In this document: positions 43,770 through 62,834 of the stretch, in pieces
How positions within the stretch are numbered: the first letter of the stretch is position 1
Layout: every line of letters starts with the position of its first letter
Translations under genes and position numbers: made by a program
Notes under the pieces: model-generated
What the model was told of the DNA's origin: nothing
Seen by the model: only the letters and a program-made list of their open reading frames with translations
Databases searched by the model: none
From: Candidatus Gottesmanbacteria bacterium GW2011_GWA2_43_14
GTDB taxonomy: Bacteria > Patescibacteriota > Microgenomatia > 2-02-FULL-39-11
NCBI GenBank assembly: GCA_000999095.1
Contig: LCFP01000001.1
Span: 10,230 to 74,229, forward strand
Direction of reading: 5' to 3'
Length of the DNA stretch: 64,000 bases

Positions 43770-43842
43770 GGGCTCGTGGTGTAGCGGTTAACATGTCGCC
43801 CTGTCGAGGCGAAGATCGCCGGTTCGAATCCGGTCGGGCCCG
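43770..43842 (+). tRNA. tRNA-Asp (anticodon GTC)
   Basis: Cloverleaf hand-folded; anticodon arm TCGCC-CTGTCGA-GGCGA; T-loop GGTTCGAATCC; no encoded CCA. Confidence 0.8.
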
Positions 43843-43892
43843 CCGGTATACCCTTAAATCTCTGCCCGGAAAGGAGGAATCATTTCCTCTTT

Positions 43893-44568: not shown

Positions 44569-44643
44569 GCGGGCGTAGTTCAGCGGTAGAATGTCTCCTT
44601 CCCAAGGAGAAGGTCGTGGGTTCAAATCCCATCGCCCGCTCCA
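44569..44643 (+). tRNA. tRNA-Gly (anticodon CCC), CCA encoded
   Basis: GCGGGCGTAGTTCAGCGGTAGAA...; anticodon arm TCTCC-TTCCCAA-GGAGA; T-loop GGTTCAAATCC. Confidence 0.85.
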
Positions 44644-49992: not shown

Positions 49993-50117
49993 GTATTCCT
50001 TCGGGGTAGGGTGAGATTCCCAATCGGCGGTATAACCCGCGAGGTCCCGATTTAATCGGGACCATGATCAGGCTGAATTCCTGAGTCGACCGTAAAGTCG
50101 GGATGGAAGAAGGATTA
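49993..50117 (+). ncRNA. FMN riboswitch (RFN element)
   Basis: P1 5' TTCCTTC...GAAGGA 3'. Conserved cores GGGTGAGATTCCC, CGGCGGTATAACCCGCGAG and GACCGTAAAGTCGGGATGGAAGAAGGA match the RFN consensus. It is followed by the hairpin CCGGCtgttttGCCGG and then the RBS/ATG of the downstream transporter. Confidence 0.8.
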
Positions 50118-50179
50118 CTATACCGGCTGTTTTGCCGGAAATATTATAAATGTTTACCCCGAAGCTAGGGGTATTTTTT

Positions 50180-50773
50180 ATGAATGAAAAACAGAAAGTC
50201 CAACCGGTTGCCGGTGTCCGGGTTATCGTCTTATCGGCCGCTTTAGCCAGTTTGTCCGCCTTTTTGCAGCTTTATCATTTGGGTTACCAGTCACCCCAGT
50301 GGGGCATGTGGCTTGATTTTGTAGCGGTCACCTGGATTGTCGCTTATTTCCTCTTCGGCTGGCGATCAGCCTTAATTGTCTCCGTTCTGGGGGCAATTAT
50401 CATTACTCTCTTTGCACCTGATACCTGGCTTGGCGCTTCCATGAAATTTGTGGCCACCGTCCCCATTTGGATCAGTCTGGCAGTCTGGGGCCGTCGCTAC
50501 AGCAATCCGAAAAATCTGATTGTTCCCTTTATCGCAGGCAATATTTTGAGGCTGATGTTGGTCCTGCCATTAAATTACTACTATGCTATACCCATCTGGA
50601 CCGGAATGACTCCGGTCCAGGCAATATCAGCCATTCCCTGGCCTGTTATTTCCCTTTTTAATATTGTCCAGAGCCTGATTGACCTCACACTGGCCTGGGT
50701 TTTGGTTTACCGGTTCCGACTGAACCGCTTCTCTGCCGGACAAAACCAGCATGAAGAAAATCTTAAATCTTAA
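50180..50773 (+). CDS. ECF-transporter substrate-specific (S) component, probably riboflavin (RibU-like). Start chosen at the second ATG, which has an AGGGG Shine-Dalgarno; the track starts at 50150.
   Basis: ~197-aa protein with 5-6 TM helices, immediately downstream of the FMN riboswitch and upstream of the ecfA/ecfT pair. Confidence 0.6.
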   Translation: MNEKQKVQPVAGVRVIVLSAALASLSAFLQLYHLGYQSPQWGMWLDFVAVTWIVAYFLFGWRSALIVSVLGAIIITLFAPDTWLGASMKFVATVPIWISLAVWGRRYSNPKNLIVPFIAGNILRLMLVLPLNYYYAIPIWTGMTPVQAISAIPWPVISLFNIVQSLIDLTLAWVLVYRFRLNRFSAGQNQHEENLKS

Positions 50774-52417: not shown

Positions 52418-52488
52418 GCCTCTTTAGCTTAGTGGTAAAGCAGCGGTATCGTAAACCGCCGACGTCGGTTCGATTCCGACAAGGGGCT
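52418..52488 (+). tRNA. tRNA-Thr (anticodon CGT)
   Basis: Anticodon arm GCGGT-ATCGTAA-ACCGC; T arm GTCGG-TTCGATT-CCGAC; 71 nt, no CCA. Confidence 0.75.
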
Positions 52489-52611
52489 CAATATTGACTA
52501 TTCCATGCCGATACTTATATTTATTTGATGAGTTAATGAAAGCTATTGTTAACAATCTCTGTTTATCTCCTTATATGGTTTAGTATTTTAGCGGCTGGTA
52601 TAATGTAACTC

Positions 52612-57998: not shown

Positions 57999-60335
57999 AT
58001 GATTATTATTACAATAATCATTTTATTTATATCTCTATTATACCCAACTTATGTTGCGTCTAATTTTACTCCTGAAAATTCTCCAATTTTAACAGTTGGT
58101 TCAACATGGGATAGATCTTATGTGTATGGACCATCTGTTTTATTCGATAATAATATATATAAACTTTGGTATACTGGGTCAAATTCATATAAAGTACAGA
58201 TAGGTTATTCTTCATCAAATACATATTTAAATTTTTCACCAAATCCGTCCAGCCCATCTATTCCTTATTCTGCTTTATATTCAACTGATTATGGGGTAGA
58301 ACATCCTACTGTTATTAAAATTACTGATAATCAATATAAAATGTGGTTTCATAGAGCAAGAACAAATTTTAACACTTTTGATCTCTATTATGCAGAATCG
58401 TCTGATGGTATATTTTGGGATAATTTTACTAAATTACTTTTTACTAACGAAACAACTTGGGATCAATATAGTCAAACAGCTCCATCAGTTATCTATGATT
58501 CAAATGAAAATAAATATAAAATGTGGTATTCAGGATCAGGTTATTTTAACAGCGATCCTCAACGTTGGAGAATAGGGTATGCTTTTTCTAGTGATGGGAT
58601 TACTTGGACAAAAAATGCAAACCCTGTTTTAGATGCTGACCAAGAATGGGAAGATAAGAATAATTTAGCGGGTGTATCTAATCCTCATGTTCTAAAAATA
58701 TCTAATAAATATCATCTTTGGTATCATAGTAAAGGAAAAATTGGGTACGCACTATCTAATGATGAAATAACATGGACTAAACATTCTGAACCAATACTAT
58801 CTCCTTTAGTAGGTACATATTACAGTAAATCAGTATGGGATCCCTATGTAGTATATGATAATAATCAATATTACTTATTTTTTTCAGCAATTGGGAGTTC
58901 TGTTAATTTAGGAGTTGCTTCTGATATTTCATTACCAGATGTTATTATCCCTACTCAAACTCCGACACCGACGCTTACTCCGACACCGACTATTCCTAAA
59001 GACTCACCGATTGTCATTTTACCCGGACTGGGTGCTTCATGGAATACAAAAGATATGGTTTCCTGCGGGTTGTCCAGTTCTGCAAAATGGGTACAAACCC
59101 CTTATTATGCAAGTGTGTATGATCGTCTGTTCAAAACGTTAGAAAATAATGCCCATATGACAAGAGATAAAAATTTATTTATTTATTATTATGACTGGAG
59201 AAAACCGTTGGATGAACAAGTTATATTGTTCAGAAAATATCTTGATGATATATCCAAAAAAACAAACTCAAAGGTACGCCTGATTGGACACAGTATGGGT
59301 GGATTACTGATTAGGGGATATTTATCTGATTATCCTGGTGATGACCGTGTATACAAAGCTATGACCGTTGGTACTCCTCATACCGGTACTGTCTTAGCCT
59401 ACCCCTTATGGGCAAACGGCGATATCTGGTTTACTGAATTGGGAGTTAAAATTCCGATAACTCTTCTTTTAAACTACTGTAGATTAGTCAAAACAACATT
59501 AAATTTAACCGGTATCTCCAAGGGATTTGTAACAATTGATGTTCCGACATATAAACTGTTAAGCCAGAAAGAAACTATTCAATCCCTTGCTCCTTCAATC
59601 GAATCACTTCTGCCGGTATTTAATTATCTTCAAAAGAATGGCAATTTAATCGATTCGACTTCCCTCATATCACAAAATAATTGGCTGAAAAATCATTTAA
59701 TTGATAATAACCGCATAAAGATGATTACCGATACCATTTCAGGTAACAACAGAAATACTTTAAAAGTTCTTTCTGTGAAACCTCCGTCAAAAAAGGATTT
59801 AAAAAATAAAAATTGGGTTGACGGCGTACCTATTGCTAAAGAATTCGACAAACAGGGAGACGGAACAATCTTAAATTTGAGTAGTATTCTGCCGAATATA
59901 AATAATATGACTATTGAAGGAGATCATATTCAAATTATTTATTCGGATGAAGCATTAAATAAAATATTAGAATTTCTTGATCTTGAAGATACACCAATCT
60001 ATCAAAAAGAACCTGTACCGATTGCTGAAGCTGAAACTGCCATAGTATTAATGTCGGATAAGAATGCTGAAATCCGGGCAACAAATATGGATAAAAATAC
60101 TATAAACAGTCAGGAAAATCTGTTATCCCTTTTTAACCCTCAAACCGGAAATTATAAAATACAAATAAAAGGAGACCAAAACGATCAGACGGTTCTGCAA
60201 ACCGCCTTGCTTAACAAAGTGAGCGATACAGAGGTAGATACTTATTCCGTTAAACTCAAAAAGAATGTCTGGATGAATTATCTGCTTATATATACGCCGA
60301 ACAATCCCAATAAACTTGTTCTTGTTCCGTATTAA
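57999..60335 (+). CDS. Secreted/anchored multidomain protein: N-terminal beta-propeller-like repeats (glycoside-hydrolase/BNR-like), a PT-rich linker, and a C-terminal alpha/beta-hydrolase (lipase-like, GHSMGG)
   Basis: Repeated YK[LM]W[YF] blades; linker TQTPTPTLTPTPTIP; nucleophile elbow LIGHSMGGLL. N-terminal TM/signal. The 5' third is AT-rich. Confidence 0.5.
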   Translation: MIIITIIILFISLLYPTYVASNFTPENSPILTVGSTWDRSYVYGPSVLFDNNIYKLWYTGSNSYKVQIGYSSSNTYLNFSPNPSSPSIPYSALYSTDYGVEHPTVIKITDNQYKMWFHRARTNFNTFDLYYAESSDGIFWDNFTKLLFTNETTWDQYSQTAPSVIYDSNENKYKMWYSGSGYFNSDPQRWRIGYAFSSDGITWTKNANPVLDADQEWEDKNNLAGVSNPHVLKISNKYHLWYHSKGKIGYALSNDEITWTKHSEPILSPLVGTYYSKSVWDPYVVYDNNQYYLFFSAIGSSVNLGVASDISLPDVIIPTQTPTPTLTPTPTIPKDSPIVILPGLGASWNTKDMVSCGLSSSAKWVQTPYYASVYDRLFKTLENNAHMTRDKNLFIYYYDWRKPLDEQVILFRKYLDDISKKTNSKVRLIGHSMGGLLIRGYLSDYPGDDRVYKAMTVGTPHTGTVLAYPLWANGDIWFTELGVKIPITLLLNYCRLVKTTLNLTGISKGFVTIDVPTYKLLSQKETIQSLAPSIESLLPVFNYLQKNGNLIDSTSLISQNNWLKNHLIDNNRIKMITDTISGNNRNTLKVLSVKPPSKKDLKNKNWVDGVPIAKEFDKQGDGTILNLSSILPNINNMTIEGDHIQIIYSDEALNKILEFLDLEDTPIYQKEPVPIAEAETAIVLMSDKNAEIRATNMDKNTINSQENLLSLFNPQTGNYKIQIKGDQNDQTVLQTALLNKVSDTEVDTYSVKLKKNVWMNYLLIYTPNNPNKLVLVPY

Positions 60336-60766
60336 AGGAAATCAGTATTCTTTATAATATCCCTGTGGTCAAAGGCTAATTTTCCCGGAATTTGGTTTAA
60401 AGAAAAATATTTCAAATCAGCTGCATCATCACCGGCTAATGCCTCTCCTTCAACTTCACATTTATAGGCAATAGCAACCGCCTGACGTGGGTGGCGGTTG
60501 GGCTTGCTGAAAACTCCGATTAAACGTAGGGAAATCACTTTTAAACCTGTTTCTTCAAGGACCTCCCGGGCAACGGTTTCTTCGACAGTCTCCTCGTATT
60601 CAACCATACCTCCGGGAAGAGCCCAATATCCTTTATACGGCTCGAATCCTCTTTTTATGAGTAACAGTTGACCGTCTTTGACAATTACGGCATCGATTGA
60701 AAGCGGTCTGTTGTCATACCGTCCGCATACCTGGCATTTTTTTTCATTAAGAATTCGTCTATTCAC
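60332..60766 (-). CDS. NUDIX hydrolase with an N-terminal Cys ribbon
   Basis: Nudix box GGMVEYEETVEETVAREVLEETG; GTG start. Confidence 0.75.
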   Translation of the reverse strand: MNRRILNEKKCQVCGRYDNRPLSIDAVIVKDGQLLLIKRGFEPYKGYWALPGGMVEYEETVEETVAREVLEETGLKVISLRLIGVFSKPNRHPRQAVAIAYKCEVEGEALAGDDAADLKYFSLNQIPGKLAFDHRDIIKNTDFL

Positions 60767-60770
60767 TTTG

Positions 60771-60838
60771 TGGACCCGAGAGGATTCGAACCTCTGACCT
60801 GTCCGACGTGACGTCGGACCGCTCTACCCGAAACATCC
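60771..60838 (-). other. tRNA-Val-like 3' fragment (anticodon-arm replacement, T-arm, acceptor 3' half). It lacks a matching 5' acceptor and D arm.
   Basis: Minus-strand read GGGATGTTTCGGGTAGAGCG-GTCCGACGTCACGTCGGAC-AGGTCAGAGGTTCGAATCCTCTCGGGTCCA. The last 30 nt are identical to tRNA-Val(CAC). Confidence 0.5.
60793..60826. repeat. 34-bp direct repeat, copy 1 (contains the 19-bp near-palindrome GTCCGACGTGACGTCGGAC)
   Basis: tctgacctgtccgacgtgacgtcggaccgctcta is identical at 61185-61218. Confidence 0.8.
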
Positions 60839-60845
60839 CTTTCTG

Positions 60846-60919
60846 TGGACCCGAGAGGATTCGAACCTCTGACCTTTCGGATGTGAACCGAACGCTCTAA
60901 CCGGCTGAGCTACGGGTCC
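60846..60919 (-). tRNA. tRNA-Val (anticodon CAC)
   Basis: GGACCCGTAGCTCAGCCGGTTAGAGCG-TTCGG-TTCACAT-CCGAA-AGGTC-AGAGGTTCGAATCCTCT-CGGGTCC-A. Confidence 0.8.
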
Positions 60920-61176
60920 ATTTTGATATATTTTTCCCCGATTATTTTTTTAATAATTATTTTACTTTTCAATTTCTTCAATTTATATTCGATTTGCCTA
61001 GCTTTTGTTAAGGAATCATACTTTTGGAAATATACCAAGTCAAATGGTTTTGTTAGATTTGTATATTTTGATTCTCCAGCATTATGTTCTTCCAATCTTC
61101 TTGAAATATTACTTGTTGAACCGATATAATACCTTTTATTTTTTAATGACTGCAAAATATAAACGAATCCTGTCAT
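60910..61176 (-). CDS. Small stand-alone GIY-YIG nuclease-family protein (UPF0213/YhbQ-like). Its last 3 codons overlap the tRNA-Val 5' end.
   Basis: MTGFVYILQSLKNKRYYIGSTSNISRRLEEHN has the GIY..YIG..R..E..N catalytic pattern. 88 aa, AT-rich. Confidence 0.7.
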   Translation of the reverse strand: MTGFVYILQSLKNKRYYIGSTSNISRRLEEHNAGESKYTNLTKPFDLVYFQKYDSLTKARQIEYKLKKLKSKIIIKKIIGEKYIKMDP

Positions 61177-61184
61177 TTTTATCT

Positions 61185-61218
61185 TCTGACCTGTCCGACG
61201 TGACGTCGGACCGCTCTA
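61185..61218. repeat. 34-bp direct repeat, copy 2
   Basis: Identical to 60793-60826. Confidence 0.8.
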
Positions 61219-61239
61219 ACCGGCTGAGCTACGGGTCCA
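61185..61239 (-). other. tRNA-Val-like 5' fragment (acceptor 5', D-arm, palindromic anticodon-arm replacement) with no T-arm
   Basis: Minus-strand read GGACCCGTAGCTCAGCCGGTTAGAGCG (identical to the 5' 27 nt of tRNA-Val) followed by GTCCGACGTCACGTCGGAC-AGGTCAGA, then the GIY-YIG start codon. Confidence 0.5.
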
Positions 61240-61307
61240 ATATTTAGGCTAATTATAGCTAAATAGCTCTTGCAGTGCTACCTTGTCTTTACCTATAATA
61301 GGATGTT

Positions 61308-61988
61308 ATGAACAAGCCGAAAGTTGTCATAAATACCGAGGATAGGAAACCCCAATCGCATGTCACCGTCAACAGTGAAATTGACGAAGATGAACAAAAC
61401 GAGGTAAAGGAAGACTTTTTTCTGCTGAAACTCTTTAAATCAGGCATAAATTTTGTCTTTGATTTCCTGGAAACGATTGTTGTCGCCTTGTCTGTATTTG
61501 TAGTCGTATATCTTTTTATCATCCAGCCTCACGAAGTCAAAGGCAGCTCCATGGAGCCATCATTCCAGAATAATGAATATATTATCACCGATAAAATCAG
61601 CTACCGGTTCGGAACGCCAAAGAGGGGTGATGTGATAATTTTTAAAGCACCAGTTAACCCGGACGTGGACTATATAAAGAGAATAATCGGAGAGTCAGGT
61701 GAAACCGTCATGGTACAAAACGGCAGAATTTTCATAGATGGCAAAATCCTTAATGAACCGTATATCAATGAACTGACTCCGGTGTTTCCCGGAGGGTTTG
61801 TCAAGGAAGGTACACCCATTACTGTTCCTGAAAACTATTATTTTGTGATGGGAGATAACCGTCCGCACAGTTCGGACTCAAGGGAATTCGGACCCATCGA
61901 TAAAAAACTTATTGTAGGCAAAGCAGTCTTAAGGTACTGGCCTATCAATGAAATCGGTCTGCTTCCGGGAATTTCTTACCGTTTATAA
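61308..61988 (+). CDS. lepB: Signal peptidase I
   Basis: GSSMEPSF Ser box and GDNRPHSSDSREFG box D. Confidence 0.85.
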   Translation: MNKPKVVINTEDRKPQSHVTVNSEIDEDEQNEVKEDFFLLKLFKSGINFVFDFLETIVVALSVFVVVYLFIIQPHEVKGSSMEPSFQNNEYIITDKISYRFGTPKRGDVIIFKAPVNPDVDYIKRIIGESGETVMVQNGRIFIDGKILNEPYINELTPVFPGGFVKEGTPITVPENYYFVMGDNRPHSSDSREFGPIDKKLIVGKAVLRYWPINEIGLLPGISYRL

Positions 61989-62006
61989 TAGGGATATGAC
62001 TGAAAT

Positions 62007-62834
62007 TCAGGAGTAAAGCTTCAGAAGCTGTTCGTAAAGTTTACGTATTTCCTCTGTAGTCTTTTCCGGTACACCCTTAAGTATGATTTGGATTTTAGCA
62101 GATATGGTTGACTGGTTAATTCTTACAGGAGTATTCATTTTGGTGGACAATTCTGAAGCCAATTTGTCCAATTCCACGCTCTGAATCCTGTCCGCTCCCT
62201 TTCTAACCGGCATATCCCTGGCTTCTTTCATCTGCCGTACCATGTCTTCTGTTCTCCTGACGGAGGAACCGTCTGTTAAAATTTGCTTGAAGGCTTCCAC
62301 CATCAAACGGGAATCAGACAAACCTGCAATTGCCCGGGCATGCCCCTCGGTGATATCAGTAGAAATCAGACCGTCTTTAATAGCATCAGGAAGCGCTAAT
62401 AACCTAAGTGTATTTGAGACATATGCCGGACTCTTGCCGATTCTTTTAGCAATTTCCGTCACCGGAATGGCATATTCATCTATCAGTCTTTGAAATCCTT
62501 GGGCTCTCTCAATCGGATTTAAATCTTCCCTTTGTACATTCTCAACCAATGCCAGTTCCAGCATACCCCTGGTATCCGTTTCTTTGACAACTACCGGAAC
62601 GGTCTTCAACCCGACAATCTTGGAAGCCCGCCAGCGCCTTTCTCCGGCAATAATCTGGAAACCGGCCGGTGTTTTGGCCACGACCAATGGTTCCAGCACT
62701 CCGTGCTCTTTAATTGATTCAACCAAATCAACCAATGATTCGCTTTTGATGAGATTTCTGACCTGAAGAGGATTCGGCTGCAGGAGACTAATATCCAGAT
62801 TAATTAATTCTTTATATTGTGTGACGTTTACCAT
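62007..62834 (-). CDS. parB: ParB/Spo0J partition protein
   Basis: ParB N-domain GERRWRA and HTH. Confidence 0.85.
   Translation of the reverse strand: MVNVTQYKELINLDISLLQPNPLQVRNLIKSESLVDLVESIKEHGVLEPLVVAKTPAGFQIIAGERRWRASKIVGLKTVPVVVKETDTRGMLELALVENVQREDLNPIERAQGFQRLIDEYAIPVTEIAKRIGKSPAYVSNTLRLLALPDAIKDGLISTDITEGHARAIAGLSDSRLMVEAFKQILTDGSSVRRTEDMVRQMKEARDMPVRKGADRIQSVELDKLASELSTKMNTPVRINQSTISAKIQIILKGVPEKTTEEIRKLYEQLLKLYS

Follow-up and report, generated by a model that had tools for sequence, protein, structure and literature searches.

A putative homing-type nuclease–tRNA cassette with a conserved hairpin at the tRNA-Val(CAC) gene of Candidatus Gottesmanbacteria

SegB of T4 and T6 is a GIY-YIG homing endonuclease which recognises a T-arm motif of tRNA genes, carries the neighbouring tRNA genes along and generates tandem repeats of tRNA plus segB (PMC2330249, PMC13096335). 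It is a protein of about 220 amino acids with a separate DNA-binding region. Here we describe a locus found in 64,000 nucleotides of DNA (the window) from Candidatus Gottesmanbacteria, an ultra-small groundwater bacterium, in which a GIY-YIG gene is also located among tRNA genes. By comparison with SegB, whose repeat junction joins the 3′ end of the nuclease gene to the 5′ end of the tRNA, the 3′ end of the ORF is here fused to the 5′ end of a tRNA; SegB recognises the T arm, and it is in the T arm that one of the tRNA fragments of the locus, fragment A, breaks off. Unlike SegB, which is larger, phage-encoded and grouped with homing GIY-YIG enzymes such as I-TevI, the protein of the window has 88 amino acids and no domain besides the catalytic one, falls in the Slx1/UPF0213 clade and is encoded by the chromosome in Patescibacteria. 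SegB is also without the hairpin, the resident tRNA split in halves and the stop codon inside a tRNA that are described below.

The best sequence and fold matches of the protein are UPF0213/YhbQ (COG2827) and the Slx1 domain, with the same catalytic Tyr, Tyr, Arg, His, and Glu. Slx1 is structure-specific, with branched DNA and stem-loops as its substrates, and a hairpin substrate would fit this; however, it has a C-terminal RING-type domain and needs Slx4, and the 88-residue protein has no such domain. The function of the bacterial UPF0213 proteins remains unassigned and, to our knowledge, no link between them and tRNA genes or mobility has been reported.

Integrase islands and prophages insert at a tRNA gene, of which they re-establish an intact copy while a direct repeat of partial tRNA is left behind, as with the cassette postulated here; unlike them, the cassette is without recombinase, measures about 0.4 kb, duplicates 5′ halves too and has a foreign hairpin in the repeat. 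In REP/REPIN-RAYT and IS200/IS605, hairpins of fixed stem with an extra-helical base flank the gene of the presumed cognate nuclease, and inverted doublets place the same hairpin on both strands, as is the case here; their enzymes are of the HUH/Y1 type and their hairpins are dispersed in the genome, whereas here the enzyme is GIY-YIG and the hairpins are confined to the tRNA half-copies beside the gene. The tRNA genes of Patescibacteria hold group I introns, some of them with homing endonucleases (PMC13011429), which are also mobile DNA in tRNA genes of the same phylum; unlike these introns, the cassette has no ribozyme and is not spliced back, and a second, intact tRNA does the work. The halves of archaeal split and permuted tRNAs are separated in the genome, as here, but they are expressed and joined into the sole copy of the tRNA, whereas the halves described here have no anticodon and exist beside an intact gene. 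Full-text searches of the available paper library turned up no account of a GIY-YIG gene fused to a tRNA gene, nor of the hairpin.

The tRNA-Val locus and its orthologous site

The order on the minus strand is fragment A, the GIY-YIG ORF of 88 amino acids, an intact tRNA-Val(CAC) (B), 19 nt, and fragment C. Fragment A (61185..61238, minus strand) is formed by positions 1-27 of tRNA-Val, which are the same as in B with no differences, followed by a hairpin and by AGGTCAGA, which corresponds to the variable loop and the start of the T stem. At 13 nt 5′ of fragment A there is a −10 box TATAAT (61252..61257, minus strand), the original promoter of the tRNA-Val; the region 5′ of A that includes it aligns with that 5′ of the plain tRNA-Val in three relatives (L114, L117, and L118). 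TATAAT presumably serves as the promoter of a single transcript with A, the nuclease ORF, and the tRNA, although transcription is only inferred. Fragment A is a dead 5′ half of the tRNA-Val gene, adjoining the old promoter.

The ATG of the ORF (60910..61176, minus strand) is located 8 nt 3′ of A. The ORF ends in ATG GAC CCG TAG, where nucleotides G1 to G10 of the tRNA provide the final codons and the stop, so that the nuclease ORF shares its last nucleotides with the first 10 nt of B, and the TAG (60912..60910) is T8-A9-G10 of the tRNA. B (60846..60919, minus strand) was detected by ARAGORN and scored 73.4 bits with the Rfam tRNA model, whose gathering score is 29; it is intact and presumably functional. 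The 19-nt spacer that follows (60827..60845, minus strand) starts with CAGAAAGGG; by eye only, this start is loosely like the CAAAGTG found 3′ of C. Fragment C (60771..60826, minus strand) contains TAGAGCG (the 3′ strand of the D stem), the hairpin, the variable loop, the T arm, and the 3′ acceptor strand; its last 30 nt match the 3′ end of B exactly, and it is a dead 3′ half of the tRNA-Val gene.

The hairpin, GTCCGACGTCACGTCGGAC, is a perfect palindrome of 19 nt. The first copy (61193..61211) is inside A and the second (60801..60819), of the same sequence, within C, and in both fragments it occupies the place of the anticodon arm. TAGAGCG, the hairpin and AGGTCAGA together form a direct repeat of 34 bp (61185..61218 in A and 60793..60826 in C, both on the minus strand), which is exact and has no extension at either end. 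The earlier note, made from the sequence alone, had described these halves, the palindrome, the repeat, the ORF, the intact tRNA-Val, and the distances between them, and this description held in every detail. The whole insert is about 0.4 kb. Among the ORFs between the host genes only two had a protein-family match, the GIY-YIG gene and a NUDIX hydrolase; the latter was rejected as cargo, being absent from all other loci. At the Rfam gathering thresholds the window as a whole yielded four tRNAs, an FMN riboswitch and nothing else, and no remnants of the element were found at the three tRNAs other than tRNA-Val (Asp, Gly, and Thr).

The earlier note had proposed to look for an empty site in relatives, and it was found. 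In related Gottesmanbacteria (L114-L119, L121, and L122) the orthologous position, flanked by the same two host genes, is occupied by one plain tRNA-Val(CAC), with a promoter region colinear with that 5′ of A; four of these relatives (L114-L117) are close to the window, with ParB 91% and SPase 78% identical, and the element is absent from them. The site is filled in the window, in L112 and in L120. L120 belongs to the most distant host (ParB 56%, SPase 50%), and it has the same element, with an ORF 69% identical and 19/19 positions of the hairpin conserved; between the ORFs of L120 and the window the synonymous sites are saturated (pS 0.83). A different GIY-YIG subfamily, of 30% identity, is located at the same tRNA in L123. 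Thus the architecture and the empty site are established, the distribution of the element is patchy and incongruent with the relationships of the hosts, although few genomes underlie this, and the presence/absence polymorphism at one conserved site that is expected of a homing gene was observed. The A of L120 agrees in its tRNA parts with the odd local tRNA, both before and after the hairpin, and therefore a later gene conversion or another route of insertion is needed there. Regarding the assembly, L112 (a 291-kb scaffold) has the same arrangement as the window, and L113, assembled from another sample, starts exactly past the 3′ end of B and carries the spacer, C, and the NUDIX gene. Since it does, the junction from B to C is not a collapse artefact of a single assembly, the kind of artefact that the earlier note had raised.

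The nuclease and its homologous loci

The Pfam GIY-YIG domain (PF01541) was found in residues 3-72 of the protein with 62.7 bits against a cut-off of 22.6. Among 24 homologues, residues Y6, Y17, R27, and H31 are invariant and E63 is kept in at least 90%. The profile search matched the UPF0213 structures 1zg2 (E = 1.3e-13) and 1ywl (E = 1.4e-9), and also Slx1. The AlphaFold model (pLDDT 87.6) has the alpha/beta GIY-YIG fold and superposes on Slx1 with an rmsd of 1.7-2.6 Å and 28-33% identity; the top Foldseek matches were UPF0213 BH0048 and Slx1, with I-TevI and UvrC being weaker. Length (about 90-100 amino acids in the family), single domain and significant profile similarity agree with UPF0213/YhbQ (COG2827), and no NCBIfam equivalog matched the 88-residue protein. 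It is not an Slx1 orthologue, as the C-terminal RING/zinc-finger is absent and there is only the catalytic domain and one helix; no separate DNA-binding domain was found beyond the catalytic core. The values of dN/dS, 0.15-0.18, indicate purifying selection on the protein. We classify it as a GIY-YIG protein of Slx1/UPF0213 type, for which metal-dependent DNA cleavage is only inferred, without biochemical data; by inference too, it would resemble Slx1 in function at most as a candidate structure-specific nuclease. PADLOC gave only marginal, domain-level matches to defence systems (E about 1e-4). In a scan of viral contigs the only matches were partial and weak ones with other GIY-YIG proteins, which reached no further than the N-terminal two-thirds of the domain, and the matches to PHROGs homing endonucleases were weak; a phage origin was rejected. 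At E ≤ 1e-10 some 2,950 protein clusters, defined at 50% identity, are retrieved with the profile.

We collected 49 homologous loci, mostly of Patescibacteria, by protein similarity alone. ARAGORN detected a tRNA on the strand of the ORF in 38 of the 49, nearly always 0-31 nt past the ORF or overlapping its end, while in 5/49 a tRNA directly precedes the ORF; the adjacent tRNAs span 10 amino-acid types. The stop codon is T8A9G10 of the tRNA in 19 of the 39 loci with a downstream tRNA (the 38 and the window). Partial tRNA copies recur: fragments of type A end at tRNA position 49-61 (about 20 loci), those of type C start at position 9-21 and are also seen in L010, L014, L016, L019, L021, L024, L036, and others, and across the loci the 5′ partial copies are as common as the 3′ ones. 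The same design is repeated at many tRNA genes across the bacterial radiation of the host. It was also noted that ARAGORN labels the hairpin-bearing tRNA copies as tRNA-SeC or tRNA-Leu.

Two of the loci, L123 and L007, are informative about the origin of the intact tRNA, for there the acceptor strands of A (5′) and C (3′) are complementary to each other, and both are unlike B; in L123 the two halves match the plain tRNA of the relative L122. As the halves pair with each other and not with B, the ORF and the tRNA came in together, and foreign copies of B are present in loci other than the window. A is unlike B also in L005, L009, and L045. The subfamilies of the ORF follow the tRNA type, which indicates a site-specific spread. 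On the other hand, identical proteins (P0047, in 108 index blocks, and P0048, in 27) are each confined to one genomic context, which gives no hint that the element has moved recently within a genome; recent transposition was rejected, as identical proteins were never seen in a second context.

The conserved hairpin

The 19-nt palindrome folds with a 7-bp stem, GTCCGAC/GTCGGAC, one G-C pair, and a TCA loop. The earlier note had suggested searching for further copies, and in the 64 kb there are none besides the two at the element; in 100 dinucleotide-preserving shuffles there were no matches even allowing 3 mismatches. A loose pattern gave 12 matches in the window, and the motif is fitted by only the two at the element; the match at 50047 was rejected as a hairpin of this kind, being inside the FMN riboswitch. 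Outside the window the identical hairpin is found in L003, L045, and L120. L003 carries a tRNA-Asp, and because the identical 19-mer flanks a homologous ORF at this other tRNA, the palindrome is part of the element and not of the tRNA.

The tRNA half-copies of the homologous loci bear hairpins with the core YCCGAY…RTCGGR, and at least one is present in 43 of 46 loci. We counted 83 of them between −200 and +450 nt of the ORFs versus 6 in 170 kb of flanks. Their constant part is the 7-bp stem followed by G, the inner stems differ with compensatory changes, and the loops, which vary among loci, offer no common anticodon. Variants of the stem are GTCCGA, CCCCGA, and CTCCGAC, and in the clade with doublets there are long hairpins with a bulged G or C. 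At loci other than that of the window the halves decay and only the hairpin stays conserved, and in some the hairpins are located in the D or T loops of the half-copies, with nested hairpins and pseudo-tRNA debris. It is clear that the hairpin is under constraint. Mirror-image doublets place the same hairpin on each DNA strand, which favours a role in DNA over one in RNA. An origin from a local anticodon arm was rejected, since the likeness to one tRNA-Asp arm (L002) fails for the other tRNA types. When a metagenome collection that does not include the contig of the window was scanned for the tRNA-Val body of the locus with an anticodon arm of 17 or 19 nt, 33 loci were obtained and none had the hairpin.

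Origin of the locus

The earlier note had taken the locus for the footprint of a GIY-YIG element inserted into, or duplicating, a tRNA-Val gene, and this claim is supported by the empty site, L120, the 49 loci and the palindrome bound to the element. We hold with high confidence that a mobile nuclease element was inserted at the tRNA-Val gene. Our main reading, that the resident tRNA-Val(CAC) holds a nuclease–tRNA cassette of the homing type whose hairpin acts in cis, is a moderate preference, with a blended probability of about 0.6. Its most specific part, homing with cargo together with the hairpin as the site of the nuclease, is tentative and taken jointly falls slightly short of being favoured, cleavage and binding being inferred. 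Nuclease activity, substrate, cut site, hairpin binding, repair route, and co-transcription are all inferences, as no biochemical or transcript data are available.

In the cassette reading, the element would be very small and selfish, with a minimal Slx1/UPF0213-type GIY-YIG gene and, directly attached to it, a whole tRNA-Val(CAC). A and C would be overlapping dead pieces of the gene that existed before the insertion, with A behind the old promoter and C at the old 3′ side, and the hairpin in their anticodon-arm place would accompany the nuclease gene, rather than the tRNA, when it travels. B would maintain the supply of tRNA-Val of the cell, and the old tRNA promoter probably transcribes A, the ORF and B jointly. 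As the ORF has no stop of its own and ends at U8-A9-G10, a transcript is probably either fully translated or matured by RNase P; the stop codon inside the tRNA thus suggests a competition between translation of the nuclease and maturation of the tRNA, which would hold the levels of nuclease low. The nuclease is postulated to make structure-directed cuts at the hairpin or in the cloverleaf DNA of the tRNA gene. A break in a naive tRNA gene would then be repaired from the filled allele, with the tRNA halves as homology arms, and hairpins, nuclease gene and cargo tRNA would be copied in together, which is homing. We propose gap repair from a hairpin-bearing donor as the reason why the same hairpin lies in the direct repeat of both halves; the tRNA-like parts of A, B, and C would stay similar through later gene conversion among them. 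A simple Campbell integration was rejected, as it cannot put the hairpin in both halves, and staggered-cut target duplication was set aside, as it needs a pre-existing hairpin-bearing tRNA.

Several aspects go against this main reading. There is specificity for the tRNA type without an evident DNA-recognition domain in 88 amino acids, and for this reason the specificity is attributed to the homology arms. B retains normal anticodon and T arms, and therefore the filled allele would not be immune if the intact tRNA gene is the target; with B retained intact, the sequence gives no evidence that the filled allele is protected. How the first direct repeat arose is left unexplained.

The most probable alternative is a local origin in which no tRNA travelled. 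Only the nuclease gene would have arrived beside the resident tRNA-Val, and breaks made repeatedly by the nuclease in the tRNA gene and repaired by unequal or microhomology-mediated recombination would have produced the tandem of partial A, B, and partial C, like the segmental amplification driven by SegB, with the hairpins pasted later into the dispensable copies. In its favour, A, B, and C of the window are identical in their tRNA parts, so that the window alone cannot separate a cargo B from a local duplication, and the flanks past B and C are loosely alike. A short flank duplication is present in L014, tandem copies of C in L021, and in L016 a tandem duplicate of tRNA-Pro that includes the terminator and has the hairpin but not the ORF; the A of L120 matches its unusual local tRNA on both sides of the hairpin, and the SegB repeats have the nuclease-to-tRNA junction mentioned above. 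However, the mutually pairing halves of L123 and L007 speak for a joint entry of ORF and tRNA into an existing gene, and the same hairpin in both halves within one direct repeat is left unexplained. We consider a local origin unlikely, although it and the homing cassette are not mutually exclusive. Even less probable is a domesticated module, beneficial to the host and not selfish, that would regulate or process the transcript or guard tRNA genes against integrating elements. The strong purifying selection, the position that is stable within species over many samples, and the location in the tRNA transcription unit, with translation stopping inside the tRNA, are consistent with it; but close relatives thrive without the element, the patchy distribution conflicts with the host relationships, two unrelated subfamilies are found at the same tRNA, and pseudo-tRNA debris with nested hairpins is typical of parasitic DNA.

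The remaining explanations can be practically discarded. In an integrase island or prophage remnant the partial tRNAs would be att-site duplications, and the B-ORF-C layout of L001, L026, and L037 is similar to such an island; nevertheless, no recombinase is evident in or near the element at the window or at the homologous loci, and the insert of only some 0.4 kb, the 5′ partial copies as frequent as the 3′ ones, and the foreign hairpin in the repeats do not agree with it. The split or permuted tRNA that the earlier note had offered as its alternative, in which a functional tRNA-like RNA with a palindromic anticodon arm would result from expressing and joining A and C or from recombination at the 34-bp repeat, failed: an intact tRNA is always present and the halves have no anticodon. 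The joined A-C does fold as a cloverleaf, which ARAGORN calls tRNA-SeC(tca), but only because of a 6-bp stem; in the window the intact tRNA-Val is present and the halves bear the palindrome in the anticodon-arm place, in other loci the loops hold no consistent anticodon and the halves decay or have hairpins in the D or T loop, and a deletion between the repeats would lose the only intact tRNA-Val(CAC) of the locus. An assembly artefact from collapsed or chimeric tandem tRNA copies might be suspected, as short-read assemblers break at the repeat and L113 begins exactly at the 3′ end of B; against this, the arrangement is also seen in L112 and partly in the independent assembly L113, and dozens of unrelated assemblies share the architecture. 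A group I intron was rejected too, no intron family being found in an Rfam scan of 59500-62500 at E ≤ 1.

A bolder form of the cassette reading, which we put forward as a possibility only, is an unrecognised class of mobile DNA, in which a minimal Slx1-like GIY-YIG nuclease would recognise the hairpin and mobilise it together with its own gene and a cargo tRNA. The hairpin would be the 7-bp stem YCCGAY/RTCGGR plus the extra G, on both strands; the route might be structure-specific cuts in the loops of tRNA-gene cloverleaf DNA, and the hairpins themselves may be inserted into D, anticodon, and T loops, or even one into the loop of another. Were this so, the UPF0213/YhbQ family, a long-standing orphan, would gain its first concrete role, and tRNA genes would be transferred horizontally as cargo.

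If the main reading is true, the uncharacterised UPF0213/YhbQ branch of GIY-YIG proteins would be tied to a defined DNA hairpin as a testable enzyme-substrate pair, and a nuclease of 88 residues with a recognition hairpin of 19 nt would be of interest as a tool. The tRNA fragments and odd tRNA calls in Patescibacteria genomes would be explained, and there would be a route for the horizontal replacement of tRNA genes. Patescibacteria would hold a widespread family of very small selfish elements, which would survive in a gene that is essential and single-copy because they bring in a spare tRNA or preserve one.

The tRNA-Val locus and its empty counterparts

All the parts that the earlier note had described around tRNA-Val were found in place, on the minus strand. 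The 5′ fragment of the tRNA gene, A (61238..61185), begins with 27 nt identical to the intact tRNA and continues with the perfect 19-nt palindrome GTCCGACGTCACGTCGGAC and then with AGGTCAGA. The ATG of the GIY-YIG ORF of 88 codons (61176..60910) lies 8 nt past this fragment, and the ORF ends in ATG GAC CCG TAG, over nucleotides 1–10 of the intact tRNA-Val(CAC), B (60919..60846; called by ARAGORN, 73.4 bits in Rfam). After a spacer of 19 nt follows the 3′ fragment, C (60826..60771), in which TAGAGCG precedes a second copy of the palindrome and the last 30 nt equal those at the 3′ end of B. A and C share an exact direct repeat of 34 bp, which extends no further on either side. Beyond these two fragments no further copy of the palindrome was found in the 64-kb window, and none of 100 shuffles contained it, even when three mismatches were accepted. 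The gene order of the window was matched by a 291-kb scaffold of the same species, and a short contig from another sample begins exactly at the 3′ end of B and covers the spacer, C and the gene that follows. The junction between B and C is therefore real, and the assembly artefact that would have refuted the arrangement was ruled out for this junction.

The signal peptidase (SPase) beside the locus assigns the organism to Candidatus Gottesmanbacteria. The neighbourhood is conserved in relatives: they have a large protein of 765–812 residues and the SPase, and most also have ParB, L27 and L21. The empty site sought in orthologous loci was found: one plain tRNA-Val(CAC) is present in L114–L117 (SPase 78% and ParB 91% identical to those of the window), L118/L119 (SPase 74%), L121 (SPase 68%) and L122 (SPase 59%, ParB 73%), without nuclease gene, palindrome or partial tRNA copies. 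In the relatives, the sequence between the start of the peptidase gene and the 5′ end of the tRNA, with a TATAAT box in it, can be aligned with the DNA upstream of fragment A; A thus sits where the ancestral tRNA 5′ end was.

Two relatives were filled. In L123 (SPase 59%, ParB 73%) the same tRNA is occupied by a GIY-YIG gene of another subfamily (30% identity). L120, the most distant host examined (SPase 50%, ParB 56%), carries the window-type element at the same locus, with a 5′ fragment derived from its own, rather aberrant, tRNA-Val. Its ORF is 69% identical to that of the window and takes its stop codon from T8A9G10 of the downstream tRNA. Synonymous sites between both ORFs are saturated (pS 0.83) and still the palindromes are identical at 19 of 19 nt, which argues for strong constraint on the palindrome. 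The element is missing from near relatives yet present in a distant one, its protein is more conserved than the housekeeping neighbours, and a second, independent occupant exists; considering this, we interpret it as horizontally moving, site-specific selfish DNA, and a mobile nuclease element at tRNA-Val is very likely (about 0.85). Behind the nuclease gene of L120 lies an intact tRNA-Val(CAC) (2757–2830) that ARAGORN did not call; its T loop (GGCGGCA) is non-canonical and its D arm is odd, the latter being shared by the fragment A upstream.

Other features of the window were also observed. A NUDIX hydrolase gene (60332–60766, minus strand) starts 4 nt past fragment C, and its overlap with a convergent 778-aa gene is 4 nt. 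No other element locus has it, nor does the orthologous locus of any relative examined, be it filled or empty, and we consider it a lineage-specific addition at the same hotspot. An FMN riboswitch (49993–50118, plus strand; RF00050, 102.5 bits) precedes the ORF at 50150–50773; its 17-mer TCCCGATTTAATCGGGA, superficially like the element hairpin, is unrelated to it, and occurs as well upstream of the plain tRNA-Val of L122. The tRNA-Asp (43770–43844), tRNA-Gly(CCC) (44569–44643) and tRNA-Thr(CGT) (52418–52489) genes are all clean; they keep the order of loci L003 and L012, in which tRNA-Asp bears a homologous nuclease element.

The nuclease and the hairpin

The score of the ORF against the Pfam GIY-YIG domain clearly exceeded the threshold. 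A profile of 24 homologues matched the two solved UPF0213 proteins, 1zg2 (E=1e-13) and 1ywl, followed by the Slx1 nuclease domain and, weakly, I-TevI. The predicted structure was confident (pLDDT 87.6), and its best superpositions were with UPF0213 and Slx1 (rmsd 1.7–2.6 Å, 28–33% identity). In the alignment of homologues Tyr6, Tyr17, Arg27 and His31 were invariant and Glu63 nearly so; dN/dS was 0.15–0.18 where synonymous divergence was unsaturated, and pN was far below pS in the 12 ORF pairs tested (12/12). Taking into account the conserved catalytic residues and the dN/dS, the ORF encodes a working protein, its nuclease activity being inferred. The 88-aa protein lacks a separate DNA-binding domain and is a bare catalytic domain. 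It belongs to the branch of the superfamily in which the characterised member acts as a structure-specific nuclease; substrate and cleavage are inferred. Three family members, P0241 (214 aa), P0293 and P0306, contain two GIY-YIG stretches, and are either fused tandem copies or the product of read-through from one copy into the next.

Hairpins with the core YCCGAY…RTCGGR numbered 83 within −200/+450 nt of the ORFs versus 6 in 170 kb of flanking DNA, and at least one was present in 43 of 46 loci. They follow a rule, a fixed 7-bp stem and then G (n=90): 37 are short perfect palindromes of the kind found in the window; in 23 an unpaired G stands on the 5′ side, and in another 21 the arrangement is mirrored, with C on the 3′ side; 9 fit no class, most of them far from ORFs. 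The asymmetric ones form doublets in fixed order, with one G-type hairpin per DNA strand, and their inner stems vary in sequence while pairing is kept (GCTCCC-GAA-GGGAG, GTTCGCC-GAA-GGCGAA, CTCCGGC-AAA-GCCGGAG). Hairpins stand in place of the anticodon arm, or in the D loop or T loop of dead copies, and in some cases one hairpin lies within the loop of another (L030, L035). The identical 19-mer lies beside homologous ORFs at tRNA-Asp (L003) and at tRNA-Val (L045, L120), so the hairpin belongs to the element. The symmetry across both strands favours a role in DNA, as hairpin or cruciform, over one in RNA. That the nuclease is the partner of the hairpin is inferred from their strict linkage and the Slx1-like fold, without experimental evidence. 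Hairpin-bearing tRNA copies without nuclease gene were observed in L016 (3352–3427), a tRNA-Pro tandem duplicate including the terminator and called tRNA-Leu(taa) by ARAGORN, and in L021 (2950–3150), with tandem 3′ fragments, one with its T arm swapped for a copy of the downstream terminator hairpin. Hairpin-for-hairpin replacement and ORF loss through recombination might explain them.

The family across tRNA genes

A scan of the genome collection, with protein similarity as the sole criterion, returned 49 homologous loci, most from Patescibacteria and a few from Omnitrophota. ARAGORN detected an intact same-strand tRNA in 38 of them, nearly all beginning 0–31 nt past the ORF or overlapping its end, and a tRNA directly before the ORF in five. 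Val, Ala, Asp, Arg, Pro, Thr, His, Met, Ile and Phe tRNAs are represented. The typical copy upstream of the ORF consists of tRNA positions 1–26, the hairpin replacing the anticodon arm, and positions 44 to 49–61; a second copy frequently lies downstream of the tRNA, beginning at positions 9–21 and continuing with the hairpin and the remaining tRNA. Among the loci with a downstream tRNA (39, the window included), 19 have an ORF without its own stop, ending at T8-A9-G10; where the layout is tRNA-ORF-fragment, the TAG of the D-stem TAGAGC serves as its stop. ORF subfamilies track tRNA type, which fits site-specific spread with rare switches, and identical proteins always kept one single genomic context, so that movement within genomes is rare. 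At E≤1e-10 the profile matched about 2,950 protein clusters (50% identity); the best matches were almost all small (mostly 84–130 residues) and extended to the C-terminus. In six loci (L021, L022, L030, L038, L039, L046) the ORF has its own stop codon upstream, and leader/trailer complementarity of 12–17 nt encloses the intact tRNA and lengthens its acceptor stem, perhaps as a processing stem or cassette boundary.

Inferred routes of spread and expression

In L123 the 5′ remnant (GCGCGTA…) pairs with the 3′ fragment (…TGCGCGC), and both halves resemble the plain tRNA of its relative L122, while the acceptor stem of the intact tRNA that they enclose differs (GGATCGT/ACGATCC). Likewise, the halves of L007 are GGAGTTG/CAACTCC and its intact tRNA GGAGTCA/TGACTCC. 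Since the halves pair together and differ from the intact tRNA, in these two loci a single piece comprising nuclease gene and tRNA was inserted into a tRNA gene already present. In the window and most loci the three copies are alike, which is compatible with transfer between close relatives, later gene conversion among the repeats, or local duplication. In nine metagenome loci (L054, L067, L069, L058, L061, L070, L071, L077, L079) the D arm of a tRNA-Val-like gene contains a second, complete tRNA-Val, with imperfect inverted repeats on both sides of it (CCTGCCCGAC...TTTG / CAAA...GTC.AG.CAGGC). No ORF was evident in the flanks examined, and these loci may represent a related form of the cargo-tRNA phenomenon that lacks an ORF.

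Our preferred mechanism is homing by break repair, held, together with the hairpin as nuclease site, with slightly more doubt than belief; it is inferred, without experimental evidence. The nuclease would cut structured DNA, in a tRNA gene or at the hairpin, and the broken naive tRNA gene would be repaired from the filled allele, the tRNA halves serving as homology arms. Gap repair off a hairpin-bearing donor, with crossover, would leave the hairpin in both flanking halves, and the intact tRNA would keep the cell alive. The weak points are a filled allele without evident immunity, a nuclease without DNA-recognition domain, and L120, where local tRNA sequence on both hairpin sides is awkward for the model. 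The main rival is local amplification as in SegB, a phage GIY-YIG homing enzyme that recognises a T-arm motif, takes tRNA genes along and yields tandem repeats of tRNA and segB joined at the segB 3′ end and tRNA 5′ end (PMC2330249, PMC13096335). Fragment A breaks off in the T arm, the motif recognised by SegB. We regard this rival as unlikely, and both processes may act together.

By inference, the old promoter would drive a single transcript of A, ORF and B. The RNase P cut at G1 of B would take off the ORF stop codon and the last two sense codons, so nuclease translation and tRNA maturation would compete for each transcript.

In the full-text literature searched we came across no description of GIY-YIG genes joined to tRNA genes, of this hairpin or of UPF0213 function, and a recent survey of the mobile introns that patescibacterial tRNA genes carry (PMC13011429) does not mention a nuclease-tRNA element. 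The element is akin to a known free-standing homing nuclease gene with tRNA cargo, and there is a real chance that its hairpin-guided, loop-targeting behaviour is categorically new.
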